From the sequence record NC_028925.1: a stretch of 64,000 nt of DNA; one strand, written 5' to 3'. How positions within the stretch are numbered: the first letter of the stretch is position 1; each line of letters begins with the position of its first letter. Below, one piece after another: positions 7,703 to 52,264 of this stretch. The translations under genes and the position numbers were made by a program. This DNA comes from Escherichia phage vB_EcoM_VR25. Below the pieces are notes generated by a model, which did no database searches, was not told the origin of the DNA, and saw only the letters and a list, made by a program, of their open reading frames with translations.

Positions 7703-8386
<684 letters not shown>

Positions 8387-8387
<1 letters not shown>

Positions 8388-9064
8388 TATATTACCTTAT
8401 TAATTTTATCAAAAAGTTCTTCGAGTGTGCCATCGTTTTTAATAACAATGTCACTAGCTAGTGGTGGAAGTCCAGCTTCCGTAATGTGTGTATCAGTAGA
8501 ATGATTTGCTTCATCGCGTTCTACAAAGATTATTGTAGCACCCATCGCCCGAAGCGAATCAAGTTCGTTCTTTTGGCGAACATCTGGGACAACGTAATAT
8601 TTATATCCAGAATAGAGGTTGTCAAGATAATCGCATGCAAAAGTTTTAATCCAAAACATGCTGTCGAACTCTGTACAAACGATGTCAGTTCCAAGGGTCT
8701 GCATGAAACGTCTAACTGTCCAGGGCTCAACATTATTTAGTGTGTGAAATTCAATGATTTTACGAACCATATCTGGATTCGGAAGGTCAAGATTATATTG
8801 CTGTTTCAACCATTCAAGAGCGTCAACCAGAAGAATATGAGCTTCAGTGTTGTTCATTATCAAGGTTTTTTCACGGTCATAACCTTGTCCATCAAAATTT
8901 TCCAGGGTCAAATTGTGTGGCAGGTCTTGACGAACCCACGCTTTATAAAGCGCTTCTTTAATTGGACCAGCAAGTTGCCACTTTGTTCCGTTTTGACTAA
9001 TAACATAATCAGCAGTCGTATCTTTACCACTGCGTTTTTTACCCACAATCGCAATTAATTTCAT
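8387..9064 (-). CDS. 1: deoxynucleoside monophosphate kinase (gene 1)
   Basis: ORF track 225 aa; P-loop GKKRSGKDT near the N-terminus; conserved position. Confidence 0.8.
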
Positions 9065-9660
9065 ACGTTTCTCATAGATGGATGCATTGACTTAGACCTG
9101 ATTTCCTGTTGCATTGCTGCATTACTATCAATCTGTGGTCTACCTTCTATTATTATACCATCAATTTCTACAGCAAAAGACTTAAAGTTAAAAGTTGCTG
9201 TTGCATTGATAGCAGGGTCAGAATCTTCTTTATATGAATACTGAATCTCTGACAGGTCGGACGGCCATGCTCCATAGTAATGGATTGACATGACAATTTT
9301 GTCCTTGTTATTATCTAAGATATGAAGCGTGACCGCTTCGGGACGACCCTTTGGATGCCATGCTTTTGATTCGTGTGTGATGTAATTGTTAAGCGAGAGC
9401 ATCCATTTATAGATATCAAGCCATGCCCTTAGGTCTTTGTCACACAGAAAGTTAACAATCAGCGGGTCGAATTCTATTGTACTACCAGGAAGACTGGAGC
9501 GATTTATACCTTGCGTTCCGCCGGGGACATCTGTAACAGGGATGTGAACCCCTGGGAGGGTAACGTCTTGAACGTTGAGTTTAAAAGTCTGTGTGAGGTT
9601 TGAATCGCTTACCTCTAATATAAAGTTAGTCGTGTTAGTTTGATTATATAAACCTGACAT
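9061..9660 (-). CDS. 3: gp3 tail completion / sheath stabiliser
   Basis: ORF track 199 aa; position between genes 1 and 2 as in T4; sequence identity not independently recalled. Confidence 0.6.
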   Translation of the reverse strand: MSGLYNQTNTTNFILEVSDSNLTQTFKLNVQDVTLPGVHIPVTDVPGGTQGINRSSLPGSTIEFDPLIVNFLCDKDLRAWLDIYKWMLSLNNYITHESKAWHPKGRPEAVTLHILDNNKDKIVMSIHYYGAWPSDLSEIQYSYKEDSDPAINATATFNFKSFAVEIDGIIIEGRPQIDSNAAMQQEIRSKSMHPSMRNV

Positions 9661-9672
9661 AGTGCACCTTGT

Positions 9673-9710
9673 TTGCTTTAAACCAATCAGTGTTATAATG
9701 GTTCTAGACC
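9673..9710 (+). promoter_or_regulatory. middle-promoter-like element (TTGCTTTA, 13 bp, TATAAT, GGTTCTAGACC) oriented antisense to the HNH gene
   Basis: plus-strand reading; same TATAATGGTTCTAGACC core as the minus-oriented copies at 44704 and 52228. Confidence 0.35.
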
Positions 9711-9745
9711 TTTTGTCCTTACCAATAACACTGACCGATAATAGA

Positions 9746-10420
9746 TTATTTTATTAATGTGTTAAGTCTTAGCTTAGTCATAAACGGATAACGTTCCAAC
9801 ATTGGCTTTACCCAGTATCGAGGATGCAATTCCTTTTTATATGCTAGGACCAACTCTCGAGCTTGCTCGACGGTATCAACTCCGAAGTTTTTACACATTT
9901 CTTGCCTATCTTTTTCCCACCGGCGCTTTCTCAATTCATCCTGAATCTCTTTATTTTTAAAATGTCCATTATTGCGAGAATGTTTTGTGCCCTTGGTTGG
10001 ACTGTAATGTCTTCCTTTGACAAACCCATCCGGAACATCTTCCCATGGAAATAGTTTTATCGATTTGACACCATTAGTAAAGTAAACTTTACCGGTTTGA
10101 CTTTTAGAAATATTGTCAGCGTGTCTACGTCTTAACCAGCCAAATAATTTATTATTACGTTTCAAATACTTGCTTGACTGACTCATAGATGTGGCGGCAA
10201 AACTTAAACCTGGATTTGTAGGATATATTTTAACCAATAGTTGATGGGCTACATAATGTTCCTCGGGAGTCAAATCGACTAGGTTATCAGGAGCATTTGA
10301 ACCACCCATACATTTCGGAATGATGTGATGAGATTCTTTATATGAAATCAGGACCCTGTTACGGGCCCTTTCAATTAACGATGAATATATAAACTGATAA
10401 TTCAAAGTGAATTTCTCCAT
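9746..10420 (-). CDS. free-standing HNH homing endonuclease
   Basis: ORF track 224 aa; HNH motif [29 protein letters not shown]; basic C-terminal half; inserted between genes 3 and 2, which are adjacent in T4. Confidence 0.75.
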
Positions 10421-11238
10421 ACTTTCTGTGAAGAAAATCTTTTGCCTTTTGAAAAAAACTGCTGAAGGGGAAGTAATACCACATTTGCCCAGTCGCTGGG
10501 CTTGATTTCAGTGATAGTACCTTTTATATTACCAGGTATATATGCTTTAATCATCTGGTCAGCCCCTTTAAATCCCTTCACCTTTGACCAATCAATCTTC
10601 AGATGAGTCTTGTTCGTAATCGTAGGAGTATTAGCATATTGCTTAAGAAGTTCCTCAAGGAACTCTTGACGCGCCTTCGGTGGAATATAGTGCAAGTTCA
10701 AACCATACATCAAATTGTGTTTGCCTAACCCAAGATAAATGATTAACGGATATTTGTCCCAGTATGGAAGAGTATCCTTATGCTTTGCATCATAGATATA
10801 AGCATAAATCTTACCTGGTTGAGGTTTAGCCGTTACGTGTCCTCTGACAGCTTTCTTAATTGTCTCTGCGAACCATCTGGCAGATTTGGTGTTGCTTGCA
10901 GCGCCTTCGTTAGCAATCTTATCTCTTATACTCTTTCTAAAGCTATTCACCATTATCAGTTGGCGTTCAGTCTTCGTAAGTTTACCAGCAGGTTTCTTTT
11001 TGAGTTTGGATACTTTATAAGCAGTCTGAATTCTCGAATGATATCTTGACATGCTTTTGGTAAAGGTTGAATAGTTGATTCCTTTCTCTTCAGCAAACTT
11101 TTTCGAGGTCATTCCCTTTTCTTTTGCTGTATAAAATTCAACCCCTATCTCAACCCATTGTTGTTCGGATTTACTGGGTTTTGGACCTGGTTTATCTGCA
11201 GATTCATTGATAAATGTAAAAATACTCATCCTTTCCAT
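10402..11238 (-). CDS. 2: gp2 DNA end-protector protein
   Basis: ORF track 278 aa (T4 gp2 about 274 aa); conserved position. Confidence 0.7.
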
Positions 11239-11675
11239 CCTAATTTTTTCAGTGAGTTTTCAGTGATTATCCTGAACGTTATACCCATTTTATCTGCCGT
11301 AGATTGTGCAGCTTTCCATTTGTCCGAGTTAACAGCCCAGGTATACATCTCGTTAATAAATCTCTTTTTGCTCGCAGCGGTATTATTAACAGGTTTGGTT
11401 GGTGGTCTTGTTTCTTTTAATGGCTTAACTTCGAAAAAGAACTGTTGTCCTGTATCAAACTTAACCCAGAAATCCATATAATACCTGCGCTTTTTACCAT
11501 CGGCATTGCTAAAGTAAGGGATGATAACAGTCTCAGAACCCCATTGAACAACGTTCGGATGGTTGTCGAGCCATCTCATAAGCCATGCCTCCCAGCTTGA
11601 CCTGTATTGTATTTTCTTCCAGTCGCCCTTATATTTTTCTATATTAGTGGGCTTAAATTTCCCGGAGTATGCCAT
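11226..11675 (-). CDS. 4: gp4 head completion protein
   Basis: ORF track 149 aa; MAYSGKF... resembles T4 gp4 (about 150 aa). Confidence 0.8.
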
Positions 11676-11723
11676 ATAGCCTCCTAATAAATATTGATAT
11701 ACTTATTTATAAATGGAGGCTTT

Positions 11724-12326
11724 ATGCTTTTTTCATTTTTTAACCCAATTGATTATGATGCTAAAACAATCAGAAAAAACCCTGCATCATTGACGAAAGA
11801 AGATGTCTTAAGCATTCCAATGACAGACATCTTCAGAAATTATCGTGCTTACTTTGATAAGGTCGCGGTCAATTATACACCAAAAACCTATTACATCGCC
11901 GGAGCTCCGAGACCTGAAGAATTATCATATCAGCTTTACGGTAACACGCAGCTATATTGGGTTCTCCTTATGCTCAATGATATCTATGACCCTTATTATG
12001 GTTGGCTTTGTACCCAAGAAGCATCGTATCAAGCATCAATTCAGAAATATTCGAATGTCGGGGGTAATCAGGTCCTTTATCATGTGAATGAAGATGGTGA
12101 AAAGTTCTGGAACCTTGTTTCTTATCCTGATAATCCATACACATGGTACGATAAAGGTGACAAGAACAAATTATATCCACAATACGAAGGTCCATTAGCT
12201 GCAGTGGATATCTATGAAGATGCTATCCGTAAAAATGAATACAAACGCGAAATAAAAATAATCGACCCGGAAGATATTGAGTCATTTATTTCCGCACTTA
12301 TCCGTGAAATGGAGAAGGCGCTATGA
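11724..12326 (+). CDS. 53: gp53 baseplate wedge protein
   Basis: ORF track 11694..12326 trimmed to ATG at 11724 preceded by GGAGG; divergent from gene 4 as in T4. Confidence 0.8.
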   Translation: MLFSFFNPIDYDAKTIRKNPASLTKEDVLSIPMTDIFRNYRAYFDKVAVNYTPKTYYIAGAPRPEELSYQLYGNTQLYWVLLMLNDIYDPYYGWLCTQEASYQASIQKYSNVGGNQVLYHVNEDGEKFWNLVSYPDNPYTWYDKGDKNKLYPQYEGPLAAVDIYEDAIRKNEYKREIKIIDPEDIESFISALIREMEKAL

Positions 12327-32538: not shown

Positions 32539-34518
32539 ATGGCTTTATTATCCCCGGGCATTGAGCTCAAAGAAACAACGGTCCAAAGCACTGTTGTTCG
32601 TAACGCGACGGGTCGTGCGGCGCTGGTTGGTAAATTCCAGTGGGGCCCAGCTTTCCAGGTAACTCAGATTACAAACGAAGTGGAACTTGTTGATTTGTTT
32701 GGTGGCCCGAACAATATCACAGCTGACTACTTTATGAGTGGAATGAACTTCCTTCAATATGGTAATGACCTGCGCACAGTTCGTGTAGTTAACCGCGACC
32801 ACGCTAAAAACGCATCCCCGGTAGCAGGGAACATCGAAAGTACAATCGCTACTGCAGGTTCTAACTATGCAGTCGGTGACGTTATCCAGGTTAAACACAA
32901 CCAGACTGTTGTTGAAACTTCTGGCCGTATTACCAAGGTTGACGTTGACGGGAAAATCCTCGCGGTCTTCATTCCGTCTGACAAAATTATTGCCTTTGCA
33001 AAATCTGTAAACCAGTATCCGGACCTTGGTCCAGCATGGACTGCTGAAATCCTGACCACTTCTTCAGGTGTGTCTGGTACGATTACCCTTGGGAAAATTG
33101 TCACCGATTCTGGTATCCTGTTGACCGAAGCAGAAAATAGCGAAGAAGCTATTACCTCTTTGGAATTCCAGGCTTCCCTGCAGAAATATGCAATGCCAGG
33201 TGTTGTTGCTCTTTATCCTGGTGAAATCGGTTCGACTCTCGAAGTTGAAATCGTTTCCAAAGCTGCATATGATGTTGGCGCTTCGAAGATGCTTGACATT
33301 TATCCGAATGGTGGTTCCCGTGCTTCTGTTGCTCGTGCGGTGTTTAACTATGGTCCGCAGACTGACGACCAGTATGCAATCATCGTTCGTCGTGATGGCG
33401 CTATCGTTGAAAACGTTGTTCTGTCAACCAAAGAAGGCGATAAAGACGTTTACGGCAACAACATTTATCTGGACGACTACTTTGCAAAAGGTACTTCCAA
33501 TTACATCTATGCAACTTCTCTGAACTGGCCAAAAGGCTTTGCAGGCATCATCAATCTGATGGGTGGTATTTCTGCAAACGACCAGGTTACTGCTGGTGAT
33601 TTGATGCAAGGTTGGGACCTGTTTGCTGACCGTGAAGCACTGCATATTAACCTGCTTATCGCTGGTGCAGTAGCTGGTGAAGGTGATGCAACCGCTTCAA
33701 CTGTTCAGAAGCACGTGGTTTCTATCGCTGACGAACGTCAGGATTGCCTGGCATTTATCTCTCCACCAAAAGGCCTTCTGGTTAACGTTCCTCTGACCCG
33801 TGCAGTGGATAACCTGATTGACTGGCGTACAGGTGGCGGCTCATTCGATACTGATAACATGAATATCAGCACGACTTATGCAGCGATTGATGGCAACTAT
33901 AAATATCAGTATGATAAATATAACGACGTTAACCGTTGGGTTCCTCTGGCAGCTGATATGGCTGGTCTGTGTGCTCGTACTGATGATGTTTCTCAGCCTT
34001 GGATGTCTCCGGCCGGTTATAACCGTGGTCAGATTCTGAACGTACTGAAATTGGCTATCGAACCTCGTCAGACCCAACGTGACCGCATGTATCAAGAAGC
34101 TATCAACCCGGTTGTTGGTTTCGCAGGTGGTGATGGTTTTGTTCTTTACGGTGATAAGACTGCAACTAAAGTTCCATCTCCGATGGACCATATCAACGTT
34201 CGTCGTCTTACGAATATGCTGAAGAAAAATATCGGTGACGCATCCAAATATAAACTGTTTGAGCTTAACGATAACTTCACTCGTGCATCATTCCGTATGG
34301 AAACTTCTCAATACTTGGATGGTATTCGTGCGCTCGGTGGCATTTATGAAGGTCGTGTGGTTTGTGATACTACCAACAACACCCCGTCGGTCATAGACCG
34401 AAATGAGTTTGTTGCTAGCATTTATTTTAAACCTGCGCGCAGCATCAACTACATCACACTTAATTTCGTAGCCACAAGCACTGGTGCTGATTTTGATGAG
34501 CTGATTGGGCCGCAATAA
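32539..34518 (+). CDS. 18: gp18 contractile tail sheath
   Basis: ORF track 659 aa (T4 659). Confidence 0.92.
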   Translation: MALLSPGIELKETTVQSTVVRNATGRAALVGKFQWGPAFQVTQITNEVELVDLFGGPNNITADYFMSGMNFLQYGNDLRTVRVVNRDHAKNASPVAGNIESTIATAGSNYAVGDVIQVKHNQTVVETSGRITKVDVDGKILAVFIPSDKIIAFAKSVNQYPDLGPAWTAEILTTSSGVSGTITLGKIVTDSGILLTEAENSEEAITSLEFQASLQKYAMPGVVALYPGEIGSTLEVEIVSKAAYDVGASKMLDIYPNGGSRASVARAVFNYGPQTDDQYAIIVRRDGAIVENVVLSTKEGDKDVYGNNIYLDDYFAKGTSNYIYATSLNWPKGFAGIINLMGGISANDQVTAGDLMQGWDLFADREALHINLLIAGAVAGEGDATASTVQKHVVSIADERQDCLAFISPPKGLLVNVPLTRAVDNLIDWRTGGGSFDTDNMNISTTYAAIDGNYKYQYDKYNDVNRWVPLAADMAGLCARTDDVSQPWMSPAGYNRGQILNVLKLAIEPRQTQRDRMYQEAINPVVGFAGGDGFVLYGDKTATKVPSPMDHINVRRLTNMLKKNIGDASKYKLFELNDNFTRASFRMETSQYLDGIRALGGIYEGRVVCDTTNNTPSVIDRNEFVASIYFKPARSINYITLNFVATSTGADFDELIGPQ

Positions 34519-34551: not shown

Positions 34552-34602
34552 CCGTAGAACCATTATACAGTGTTATAAATAAAAGCATAATCGGTTCTAC
34601 GG
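34552..34602. promoter_or_regulatory. 10-bp perfect inverted repeat (CCGTAGAACC / GGTTCTACGG) with 31-nt loop containing TATAAATA and a minus-oriented MotA-box-like/TATAAT pair
   Basis: read directly in the gene 18-19 intergenic region. Confidence 0.4.
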
Positions 34603-34668: not shown

Positions 34669-34720
34669 CATGCATCAGGGACGCGTTCGCGCGACCTGTG
34701 TCTATAAAGAGGATTCCTTA

Positions 34721-35212
34721 ATGGAGTTGACCGATATCACACGCGCTTTCGAATCCGGTGACTTTGCTCGCCCTAACCTGTTCGAAGTCGAAATCCCATT
34801 CCTGGGTAAAAACTTTGCTTTCCATTGTAAAGCAGCCCCGATGCCTGCTGGCATTGTAGAAAAAGTACCAGTTGGTTATATGAACCGTAAAATCAACGTT
34901 GCGGGAGACCGTACATTTGATGACTGGACTATTACGATTTATAACGACGATGCTCATAAAGTTCGTCAAGCAATTGTTGATTGGCAAAATATGTGTCACG
35001 GTATGACTAACGAAATTACCGGTGCAGCTCCTGCTGATTATAAGAAAACCGCTACTGTCCGCCAGTTCCATCGTGATGGCAAGACCATTACTAAAGAAGT
35101 TGTTATCACCGGCATGTGGCCAACTAACGTTGGGGAAGTCCAGATGGATTGGGATTCGAATAATGAGATTGAGACATTCGAAACTACGTTTGCAATTGAC
35201 TGGTGGGAATAA
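34721..35212 (+). CDS. 19: gp19 tail tube protein
   Basis: ORF track 34670..35212 trimmed to ATG at 34721 (AAAGAGGA RBS), giving 163 aa as in T4. Confidence 0.88.
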   Translation: MELTDITRAFESGDFARPNLFEVEIPFLGKNFAFHCKAAPMPAGIVEKVPVGYMNRKINVAGDRTFDDWTITIYNDDAHKVRQAIVDWQNMCHGMTNEITGAAPADYKKTATVRQFHRDGKTITKEVVITGMWPTNVGEVQMDWDSNNEIETFETTFAIDWWE

Positions 35213-43612: not shown

Positions 43613-44617
43613 TTAACTAATTAATGCAATCCAAACATGTCTTAATGTATCTCTTACATTTGCAATGAGTTGCTTTTTAACTTCAACAGGATTTTCCGTC
43701 TGGGTTAATTCAAGGCCTTCCCGACCTGCTTCTTCCAAAATATCTTGAACAGTCAAACCCATTACCTTTCCAAAATCCTTTGGCGTTACTTCCCCAATTT
43801 TACTGATAACATTGTTGATGCGGTTAACAGTCACATAATCAGTGAACTTCCATAAAATGTCCAGGTCTTCCTGGGACAACACAACAGCAGCCTTGATAGG
43901 CTTATCAGACTTTTTCTTTTCGCTGAATTTAGAGTTCTTACATTTAATCGCTACGCGCTCACCATTAGGTAACCAGGCCGGAGTATCAGGTTTAAGAACA
44001 TACCCTTCTGCAGTGAATACTTTACCTTCAACCTTTGCGTCAAAATCGGTGGTATTCGCGGTAGTCAAACCCGCATTATCTACTGTAAAATTGTAATCAG
44101 GAACCACAGAATCCAGGTCGTTAGGGAGCTTAATCAAGTCTTCAAAGCTACCCGTAGCCAGTCGTGGGGCAACCTTAAATTTATGGATAATACAGAAGGC
44201 TTCCATCAATGAATCAGTCAAAACAGATTCAGAGCCATCTTCCTTAGTAACGCGGATATCAAATACATAGAAATCTTTGTCACCATAATCAACATTCTTC
44301 TGGATACCCGCCCCGGCAAACTCACCATAAATTTGGTATGATTGATAATTAATATCCTGTAAAAGTCTCTGCACAGTTTTAATGGAATCTGCATAGTTCT
44401 TGAGTACAATTTCGTAGCCATAGAAATCTTCTGCAGGTAGGATAGGTCCAGTGCGTTTCGCACATGTCACATTGTCTTGTTCAATGATTAATGAAAAGTT
44501 GGTGCCATGAATTTTCTCACGCGCTACCCATTCACCGCTGGTGAAGCCTTGCAGGCGAATCTTTTCAATGAACTTGTTGTTATAGTGATTTTCAAGGCTG
44601 TTGTATTTCTTAAACAT
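43613..44617 (-). CDS. rnlB: RNA ligase 2
   Basis: ORF track 334 aa (T4 Rnl2 334); [13 protein letters not shown]... and nucleotidyltransferase motif KIHGTN. Confidence 0.9.
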
Positions 44618-44703: not shown

Positions 44704-44740
44704 GGTCTAGAACCATTATACCACAATTTTATTTGAAGCA
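44704..44740 (-). promoter_or_regulatory. middle-promoter-like element (MotA-box-like TGCTTCA, 13 bp, TATAAT, GGTTCTAGACC) upstream of rnlB
   Basis: minus-strand reading. Confidence 0.45.
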
Positions 44741-51675: not shown

Positions 51676-51780
51676 TTAGTGCTTCTTTAATGCGGCATTA
51701 ATAAACTGTTGAAATTCACGCATCTTCTCTTCAGAAGGTTTTAATGGTTTTCTAATATTTGCTTTACGACAACCCATCAT
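51676..51780 (-). CDS. very small basic ORF (34 aa), possibly uvsY.-1-like
   Basis: hand-translated MMGCRKANIRKPLKPSEEKMREFQQFINAALKKH; ATG overlaps the uvsY stop (ATGA). Confidence 0.25.
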   Translation of the reverse strand: MMGCRKANIRKPLKPSEEKMREFQQFINAALKKH

Positions 51781-52211
51781 TTACCTGCCTCAAATTGTCT
51801 TATTTCTAACATATGTTTAAGCGCGAAACTTCGTGACTTAACACCATCTAATGCAGCGCTACAGAAGTCCTGGAGCAGTGCCCAATATTGAATTGAAGTA
51901 TCAATCTTAAGCACGCTTGAATCTGCAGCCATGACTGTTTTCAATTCTGACTTCTCGTACACATCCATGCATACTTCTTCCCCTGGGTCACCCCTTCCTG
52001 TATAATGGTCAAGCCTCTTTTTAAGAGCTGTTTTCTTCTGAATCTCAAGACGCATTATTTCTTTCTTGCAGTTAGTATACAATCTCAACCATTTGCTATG
52101 CAACAAAACGTTGTTTTGTGTTTCATATTGAATTTGTGTACCATCAATTTTTAAATCTGCATCCAACTCATCCTGAAATACTTCCAACTTATATTCAATC
52201 TCTGTTTTCAT
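51777..52211 (-). CDS. uvsY: UvsY recombination mediator
   Basis: ORF track 51777..52241 trimmed to ATG at 52209-52211 because the upstream ATG lies inside the -10; C-terminus ...YWALLQDFCSAALDGVKSRSFALKHM...FEAGK matches T4 UvsY. Confidence 0.85.
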   Translation of the reverse strand: MKTEIEYKLEVFQDELDADLKIDGTQIQYETQNNVLLHSKWLRLYTNCKKEIMRLEIQKKTALKKRLDHYTGRGDPGEEVCMDVYEKSELKTVMAADSSVLKIDTSIQYWALLQDFCSAALDGVKSRSFALKHMLEIRQFEAGK

Positions 52212-52227
52212 AATGTATCCAATGTAA

Positions 52228-52264
52228 GGGTCTAGAACCATTATACAGCCATAAAATTAAAGCA
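52228..52264 (-). promoter_or_regulatory. middle promoter candidate for uvsY (MotA-box-like TGCTTTA, 12 bp, TATAAT, GGTTCTAGACC)
   Basis: minus-strand reading; T4 uvsY is known to have a MotA-dependent middle promoter. Confidence 0.5.

Follow-up and report, generated by a model that had tools for sequence, protein, structure and literature searches.

Between two genes that are adjacent in bacteriophage T4, genes 3 and 2, an open reading frame with an HNH motif is found in a T-even phage, and from just beyond its stop codon a sequence resembling a MotA-dependent middle promoter points back into it from the opposite strand. The arrangement lies in a 64,000-nucleotide stretch of Escherichia phage vB_EcoM_VR25 (NC_028925.1), the whole of which is referred to here as the window, and it raises the question of whether the gene and the promoter-like element form a single unit or have separate histories. 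The comparisons reported below make it highly probable that a mob-like HNH endonuclease cassette has come to sit on the end of gene 2, and that the MotA-type middle-promoter element is a separate and older constituent of the locus.

The gene 3/gene 2 locus

Over positions 8300-11800 the window is 96% identical to Escherichia phage vB_EcoM_VR7 and 94–98% identical to some 30 other Gaprivervirus genomes (Straboviridae, Tevenvirinae), and its source is a VR7-like T-even phage (Gaprivervirus). The minus strand carries gene 1 (dNMP kinase, 8387-9064), gene 3 (tail completion and sheath stabilizer, 9061-9660, assigned by PHROG 45, Pfam PF06841 and the VR7 annotation), gene 2 (DNA end protector, 10402-11238, assigned by PHROG 429 at 2.2e-78 and by comparison of the C-terminus with relatives) and gene 4 (11226-11675), and gene 53 starts at about 11694 on the plus strand. 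In T4 a 106-bp spacer is all that separates genes 3 and 2, and the corresponding spacer of the window phage measures 85 bp. The placement of the ORF between these two neighbours, as originally predicted, is correct.

Upstream of gene 4 is the late promoter TATAAATA (11704-11711, minus, read from 11711 to 11704). From there as far as gene 3 the minus strand has no other, and none was found upstream of gene 3. Genes 4 and 2, the endonuclease gene and gene 3 therefore constitute one late operon, and the endonuclease cassette is without a promoter of its own. Endonuclease genes have three distinct insertion sites in the gene 4-2-3 operon, which is thus a local hot spot for them.

Identity of the endonuclease

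Counted from an in-frame upstream ATG at 10418-10420, the ORF occupies 9746-10420 (minus) and encodes 224 aa, and the 29-residue HNH motif previously read from it is present. The coding sequence preferred here, for reasons given below, is 9746-10405 (minus), with a TTG start and 219 aa plus stop. The ORF matches PHROG 655 'homing endonuclease' at 5.7e-56, and the VR7 counterpart, VR7ORF161c, is annotated as a putative mobile endonuclease similar to T4 MobB; the Pfam HNH profile (PF01844) scores 16.3 bits, below its cut-off of 21.4. The catalytic motif HH...N...EH...H maps to 10244-10330 (minus), corresponding to residues 26-54 of the 219-aa protein, and H26, H27, N41, H50 and H54 are invariant in an alignment of 42 sequences. 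An AlphaFold model with a mean pLDDT of 91 has a strand-strand-helix arrangement across residues 24-60 (strands 24-27 and 42-45, helix 47-60, pLDDT >90 there), and the His...Asn...His motif is carried on this core as in HNH (beta-beta-alpha-metal) endonucleases. In a sequence search of solved structures the motif aligned to the HNH motifs of McrA and pyocin AP41, and as regards a structural homologue of the whole endonuclease the match was limited to this short motif.

The protein is modular. Its first ~100 aa are 45–62% identical to mob-like endonucleases at many other loci, among them nrdA, uvsW, topoisomerase II and T4 mobB, and the full length and the C-terminal half are common only to endonucleases adjoining gp2. 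The ORF is a free-standing mob-like HNH homing endonuclease gene, cleavage and homing being presumed for it as for the whole lineage, and it is of a known kind, already annotated in close relatives (VR7, RB32). The PHROG match, the VR7 annotation and the absence of the gene from collinear relatives all sustain the initial call of a homing endonuclease.

A seamless insertion at the gene 2 stop codon

The insertion site could be defined by comparison with insert-free relatives, as had been suggested with the original prediction. Alignments to VR26 and RZ and comparison of the junctions delimit a cassette of 659 bp (9749-10407, boundary ambiguous by 1 nt), positioned between the last sense codon of gp2 and the gp2 TAA stop. 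The coding strand of insert-free phages reads ...TGG AGA AAT TCA then TAA TCTATTATC..., and that of the window reads ...AAT TCA CTT TGA ATT ATC AG...(ORF)...ATA AAA then TAA TCTATTATC. In the window gp2 has accordingly received one added Leu codon and a new TGA stop from the insert, and the TAA that ends the endonuclease gene (9746-9748, minus) is the ancestral gp2 stop of insert-free phages. Both flanks of the cassette align directly to insert-free relatives with no intron-like sequence, a search of Rfam over 9500-10600 returned nothing relevant, and the cassette is nearly all ORF, with essentially no non-coding DNA inserted. The junction is the same in the four genera examined; when intact, it reads ...TGGAGAAATTCA then TAATCTATTATC..., and the VR26-type junction includes AAAGTATGGAGAAATTCATAATCTATTATCGG. 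The endonuclease is in this respect a very clean case of seamless insertion, an ORF and nothing more having been grafted onto a host stop codon.

The ORF start had been described as overlapping the 3' end of gene 2; the overlap stands, but the ATG is less likely to be the start than a TTG with a shorter overlap. The conserved start is probably TTG 10403-10405, six codons downstream of the ATG, giving a protein of 219 aa. Homologues from Dhakavirus, Kanagawavirus and Acinetobacter phages all start M-N-Y, and their ATG aligns with this TTG; the VR7 gene is annotated from the TTG, and the 219-aa database cluster P0001 is 100% identical to the TTG-started endonuclease. A GGAG is found 9 nt upstream of the TTG, within gp2 codons. 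The ATG at 10418-10420, from which the overlap with the gp2 3' end would be 19 nt, is ancestral gp2 sequence; it is found in VR26 and is absent from VR7, which has CAA there. The TTG and the new gp2 TGA (10402-10404) overlap by 4 nt as TTGA (10402-10405, minus), and the Dhakavirus and Kanagawavirus homologues have an equivalent TAATG overlap with the gp2 stop. An endonuclease start overlapping the stop of the upstream gene is also found in T4 nrdA/mobE, where the UAAUGA start/stop overlap has been described and interpreted as translational coupling (PMC2988022).

Other features are likewise shared with the T4 Mob family (MobA-E, of which MobE has been characterised): the N-terminal HNH domain, with the first ~100 aa 48% identical to MobB, the free-standing position between two conserved genes with borrowing of host operon transcription, and the sporadic distribution among close relatives. 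Unlike the Mob family, the present endonuclease has its site at the gene 2/gene 3 junction and a C-terminal half limited to the endonucleases of that junction, it has a TTG start in a purely late operon, and its cassette has entered precisely at a stop codon, which it uses again as its own.

A middle-promoter-like element opposing the late operon

On the strand opposite the endonuclease gene, all parts of the MotA-box-like/TATAAT element predicted past the ORF stop were recovered. The element (9672-9706, plus) comprises a MotA box TTTGCTTTA at 9672-9680, which includes TTGCTTTA at 9673-9680, a 13-nt spacer with an extended TG at 9691-9692, a TATAAT -10 hexamer at 9694-9699, and GGTTCTAGACC at 9700-9710, within which a GG discriminator (9700-9701) and a predicted start A (9706) are found. 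It is located 40-75 bp downstream of the ORF stop and points into the ORF. In the published consensus (PMC2988021) 12 +/- 1 bp separate the MotA box (a/t)(a/t)(a/t)TGCTTtA from the sigma-70 -10 TAtaaT downstream of it, and TTTGCTTTA-13 nt-TATAAT fits this consensus. Homologues of T4 MotA are present in Gaprivervirus TH55 and 212 (33% identity, 98% coverage), the motA locus being outside the window.

Such sequences are overrepresented in the 64-kb window. The pattern TGCTTYA-N11-13-TATAAT has 3 matches against 0.07 expected, a count reached by none of 100 shuffles, and the looser TGCTTYA-N11-13-TANNNT has 6 against 1.4 expected, five on the minus strand, in the early/middle direction, and one on the plus strand, which is the present element (9674-9699). 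The sequence TATAATGGTTCTA occurs in 4 copies against 0.15 expected, each 12-13 nt after a TGCTT box, and two of these copies (44720 and 52245, minus) are just upstream of minus-strand ORFs, like ordinary middle promoters. From -10 to +5 the element has the very sequence of two canonical middle promoters on the minus strand of the window. With the MotA/AsiA-dependent middle promoters of T4 (P1, PuvsY) it shares the MotA box, the 13-nt spacer, the TGn-extended TATAAT and the A at +1; unlike them it opposes the surrounding genes, being antisense to late genes 2 and 4, and it is a prediction from sequence whose T4 counterpart (about 76000) is outside the 58 identified.

The conservation of the element was followed in gp3 loci taken from viral contigs and aligned by anchoring on the hexamer. 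In 16 distinct lineages, T4 among them, the TATAAT is invariant and mostly followed by GG, a GCTT core is kept ~13 nt upstream of it, and the spacer sequence varies freely. The element occupies the same position in T4, Dhakavirus, Kanagawavirus, Acinetobacter phages and others, and KPV15-like and Slopekvirus-like phages (L033-L037), in which the spacer is missing, are without it. That these latter phages might also be MotA-less was considered and rejected, MotA homologues of ~66% identity being found in 164 Klebsiella phage records; several of those MotA-bearing Klebsiella phages have genomes of KPV15-like size.

The T4 counterpart, AATGCTTTA-13 nt-TATAATGGGTCTA, is found at 75967-76000 (plus). 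The same search rule recovers T4 promoter P1 with a predicted start equal to the published 75393, and the start of the T4 plus-strand element can therefore be placed at about 76000. The T4 element is missing from the list of 58 identified T4 middle promoters, in which P57A at 74877 and P1 at 75393 come closest to 76000 (PMC2988021 Table 1). The replication origin oriE is ~2 kb downstream of the element, and according to a replication review no middle-mode promoter is known near oriE (PMC3016281). No description of a plus-strand promoter or of an antisense RNA between T4 genes 3 and 2 was found in the literature searched; differential RNA-seq data for T4 are public (GEO GSE255091; bioRxiv 10.1101/2024.04.04.588121).

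The spacer hairpin

The spacer that holds the element also encodes a stable hairpin in the sense of the late mRNA (9682-9739, minus), in the stretch from the endonuclease stop to the ribosome-binding site of gene 3, with a 10-bp inverted repeat (9687-9696/9725-9734) as its core. As the cassette reuses the gp2 stop, this hairpin now follows the endonuclease gene. Sense-strand RNA of 9661-9748 folds better than its complement (-26.1 kcal/mol, z -5.3, for the minus strand and -18.1 kcal/mol, z -2.6, for the plus strand). A hairpin is present between the gene 2 stop and gene 3 in most lineages examined, differing in sequence and position, and the minus strand is favoured in most of those, usually being the more stable because of G-U pairs; some of the pairs show compensatory changes across Dhakavirus and Kanagawavirus. 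In the window phage half of the TATAAT is within the sense-strand stem. These properties, and the absence of the element from the published list of T4 middle promoters, are what would speak for a constraint on the sense strand, exerted through the hairpin or the gene 3 translation initiation region, with no promoter present and the likeness to a MotA promoter fortuitous. Such an explanation deserves to be taken seriously but is rather unlikely. The hairpin is wholly downstream of, and excludes, the TATAAT in T4 and in the lineages L026, L039-L042 and L044, and the invariance of the hexamer is therefore not explained by the hairpin; the GCTT keeps its ~13-nt spacing in such lineages as well. 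Stem sequences vary freely whereas the hexamer does not, and elsewhere in the window two minus-strand genes are each preceded by a MotA box with an identical TATAATGGTTCTAGACC after it. The element can very probably be regarded as a true promoter of the MotA type.

Distribution of the cassette and signs of its mobility

The cassette is present in six Gaprivervirus genomes (VR7, TH55, TH22, UPEC07, P479 and fPSFA) and absent from about 20 closely related ones, the otherwise collinear locus being cassette-free in VR26, VR20, SP18, CJ20, MN01, P8, 212 and RZ. The gene is thus not a constant resident of the site in all relatives, which would have marked it as ancestral. A full-length homologue (E <= 1e-40) was retrieved from 75 phage records, and wherever these carry functional annotation it adjoins the gp2 'DNA end protector'. 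Carriers include Tequatrovirus RB32, RB33 and HY03, Dhakavirus and Kanagawavirus, and Serratia, Erwinia, Citrobacter and Acinetobacter phages. VR7ORF161c, RB32 ORF146c and the other genes beside gp2 that are annotated as 'site-specific intron-like DNA endonucleases' belong to this one lineage and share its junction. As the lineage occurs 75 times at a single junction in several genera, it would be a good system for studies of target choice.

At the amino acid level the endonuclease is 88% identical to that of VR7, 98% to those of UPEC07, TH55 and P479, and 59% to that of RB32. It is under purifying selection, with dN/dS about 0.1 (0.13 against VR7, 0.09 against UPEC07 and 0.09 against Konradin). 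Relative to VR7 the window has 0-4 mismatches per 100 bp over nearly all of 7800-12300. Within 9900-10499 the figure rises to 13-26 in five of six 100-bp bins, and there the window matches the allele of UPEC07, TH55, P479 and fPSFA rather than that of VR7. Unlike VR7ORF161c, the window copy is accordingly a UPEC07-type allele on a VR7-type backbone, and the alignments define a local recombination patch (about 9900-10499) with the cassette at its centre. Gene 2 is hypervariable over its final ~70 nt (10408-10480, minus), with three Gaprivervirus alleles: allele A in the window, UPEC07, TH55, P479, fPSFA and insert-free RZ, allele B in VR26, VR20, P8, 212 and MN01, and allele C in VR7 and insert-free SP18 and CJ20. 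The mosaic patch and the hypervariable gp2 end are compatible with co-conversion from diverged donors; the fit is not a clean one, because each cassette-linked gp2 allele is also found without the cassette.

Patchiness of this kind could also arise by repeated loss of a domesticated or decaying resident gene that is no longer mobile. RZ, which has a cassette-linked gp2 allele and no cassette, looks as it would after a precise loss, and the gene lacks its own promoter and begins with a weak TTG. This alternative is nevertheless improbable, as none of the six Gaprivervirus carriers has a disrupted ORF, the catalytic residues are invariant, dN/dS is 0.09–0.13, and the same junction is filled in distant genera. 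Moreover, the window and VR7 copies differ by a dS of 0.55 on near-identical backbones, and two such alleles require a recent horizontal replacement.

A mobile endonuclease at this locus would be made late and at a low level, through translational coupling to gp2. In a mixed infection it may nick or cut the intact gp2/gp3 junction of phages lacking the cassette, and recombinational repair would then copy the cassette, together with a short flanking stretch of gene 2, into the recipient. Since the insert splits the conserved junction, carriers would be immune.

Relative age of the element and the cassette

Insert-free VR26 has the same 85-bp spacer, element included, and insert-free RZ departs from it at one base, with MotA box and TATAAT intact. 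In the carrier UPEC07 the spacer has one or two substitutions, outside box and hexamer, and in VR7 a 1-nt deletion is located inside the MotA box. The end of the cassette at 9749 is 43 bp from the predicted start at 9706. From these comparisons the element is judged to be older than the insert and separate from the endonuclease cassette. The notion that it is a regulatory part of the cassette, having arrived with the gene or evolved for restraining it, can draw on its proximity to the ORF stop, its aim into the ORF and the tight regulation known for homing endonuclease genes (PMC2988022), but is scarcely credible given the insert-free VR26 and RZ spacers, the distance to the cassette boundary and the retention of the element in T4 and other lineages without an endonuclease gene here. 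The link between promoter and endonuclease implied by the original prediction is not supported, for the same reasons. The antisense direction of the element through the endonuclease gene holds as to orientation, and is a by-product of the landing site rather than a property of the endonuclease: the predicted crossing results from the cassette having landed between a pre-existing element and gene 2.

Possible antisense transcription

If the element fires in the middle period, an RNA antisense to gene 2 would be produced in every phage that carries the element, and in this phage it would cross the endonuclease gene first, and middle-period RNA antisense to gene 2 is the most likely product of the element. 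A terminator-like hairpin GCCCAGTCGCTGGGC, then TTGATTTCA, is found at 10487-10511 (plus). Its distance from the predicted start is 122 nt for VR26 and 781 nt for the window, and in this phage and close relatives the cassette would lengthen the predicted antisense RNA, counted to the first terminator-like hairpin, from about 140 nt to about 800 nt. As a conserved plus-strand terminator the hairpin was rejected, being found in some lineages only and within conserved coding sequence. A conserved small plus-strand ORF downstream of the element was rejected too: there is a short ATG ORF in VR26 and IME08 and none in T4.

We tentatively put forward, as a possibility well short of even chances, that the T4-like gene 3/gene 2 spacer harbours a conserved, unlisted MotA-dependent promoter giving rise to middle-period RNA antisense to late genes 2 and 4. 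Speculatively, such an RNA could damp the expression of gene 2, gene 4 and, here, the endonuclease before the late period, and by its antisense position it would put the endonuclease gene under the same control; in an alternative role, equally speculative, it could serve as a primer or R-loop transcript for replication toward oriE. The classical 'anti-late RNA' might have a defined source in this element. What is presented by this locus is a perfect but wrong-way MotA-type promoter sequence in a late operon, conserved from T4 to Acinetobacter phages and yet uncatalogued in T4. If active, it would give the best-studied phage a concrete start point, open to mutation, for transcription antisense to its late genes. 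The window has another such element, at 34555-34590 (minus), which points into late gene 18 and for which no T4 counterpart was found between genes 18 and 19.

Variation in the 4-2-3 operon

The late minus-strand operon of genes 4, 2 and 3, which in VR25 carries the HNH endonuclease cassette (659 bp, 9749-10407) at the junction of genes 2 and 3, is a hot spot for endonuclease genes (gene 4, window 11200-11700; fetched loci L003, L004, L087-L089, L092 and L093). Other homing endonuclease genes lie between genes 2 and 4 in the Gaprivervirus relatives RZ, P479, fPSFA and P8; in UPEC07 and 212 such genes occupy the junction of genes 4 and 53. When gene 4 is compared with that of the window, phages with such an extra gene show roughly 10-32 mismatches per 100 bp, and those without one 0-12. 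The last ~70 nt of gene 2 (10408-10480) are sharply divergent: three alleles, separated by about 15 differences over 70 nt, segregate in phages otherwise 95-99% identical. These alleles are only loosely linked to the presence of the cassette.

Hairpins flanking the insertion

Within gene 2, a terminator-like hairpin is located on the plus, and hence antisense, strand at 10487-10511, reading GCCCAGTCGCTGGGC followed by TTGATTTCA. From the antisense start predicted at the plus-strand MotA-type element in the gene 3/gene 2 spacer (the 9694 element, 9672-9706), the distance to this hairpin is 781 nt in the window, as opposed to 122 nt in the insert-free relative VR26. The hairpin was found in two other lineages as well and is absent from T4. 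A stable hairpin of the late mRNA (-26.1 kcal/mol, z -5.3) occupies 9682-9739 on the minus strand, between the stop of the endonuclease gene or gene 2 and gene 3; it has no U-tract and is therefore no obvious terminator. Most of the T4-like lineages examined have a hairpin between these genes, differing in sequence.

Middle-promoter-like elements

Two canonical middle-promoter matches were found on the minus strand of the window, at 44708-44740 upstream of the minus-strand ORF 43613-44617 and at 52233-52264 upstream of the minus-strand ORF 51777-52241, and both share with the 9694 element exactly the same sequence from -10 to +5, TATAATGGTTCTAGACC. A second antisense element of the MotA type, a MotA box with TATAATGGTTCTA, is directed into a late gene from the minus strand at 34555-34590, in the spacer between a 659-aa ORF the size of gp18 (32539-34518) and a 180-aa ORF of about the size of gp19 (34670-35212). 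A 10-bp inverted repeat, CCGTAGAACC...GGTTCTACGG, surrounds this element, which has no counterpart in the 18/19 spacer of T4. In VR7 (locus L001, about 1875) the MotA box of the element corresponding to that at 9694 carries an internal 1-nt deletion (TTTGC-TTA), and the resulting TGCTTAA is also the form present in Dhakavirus.

Domain matches of gp4 and gp2

The head completion protein gp4 (11226-11675, minus strand) matched the N-terminal domain of TnsA-like endonucleases (Pfam PF08722, 1.4e-21). The N-terminal ~80 aa of gp2 (10996-11238, minus strand) matched a separate family, PHROG 32288 'HTH DNA binding protein' (4.9e-28), and the remainder matched the DNA end protector family; in NC_055715 (KPV15) an 'HTH DNA binding protein' feature is annotated adjoining gp2.
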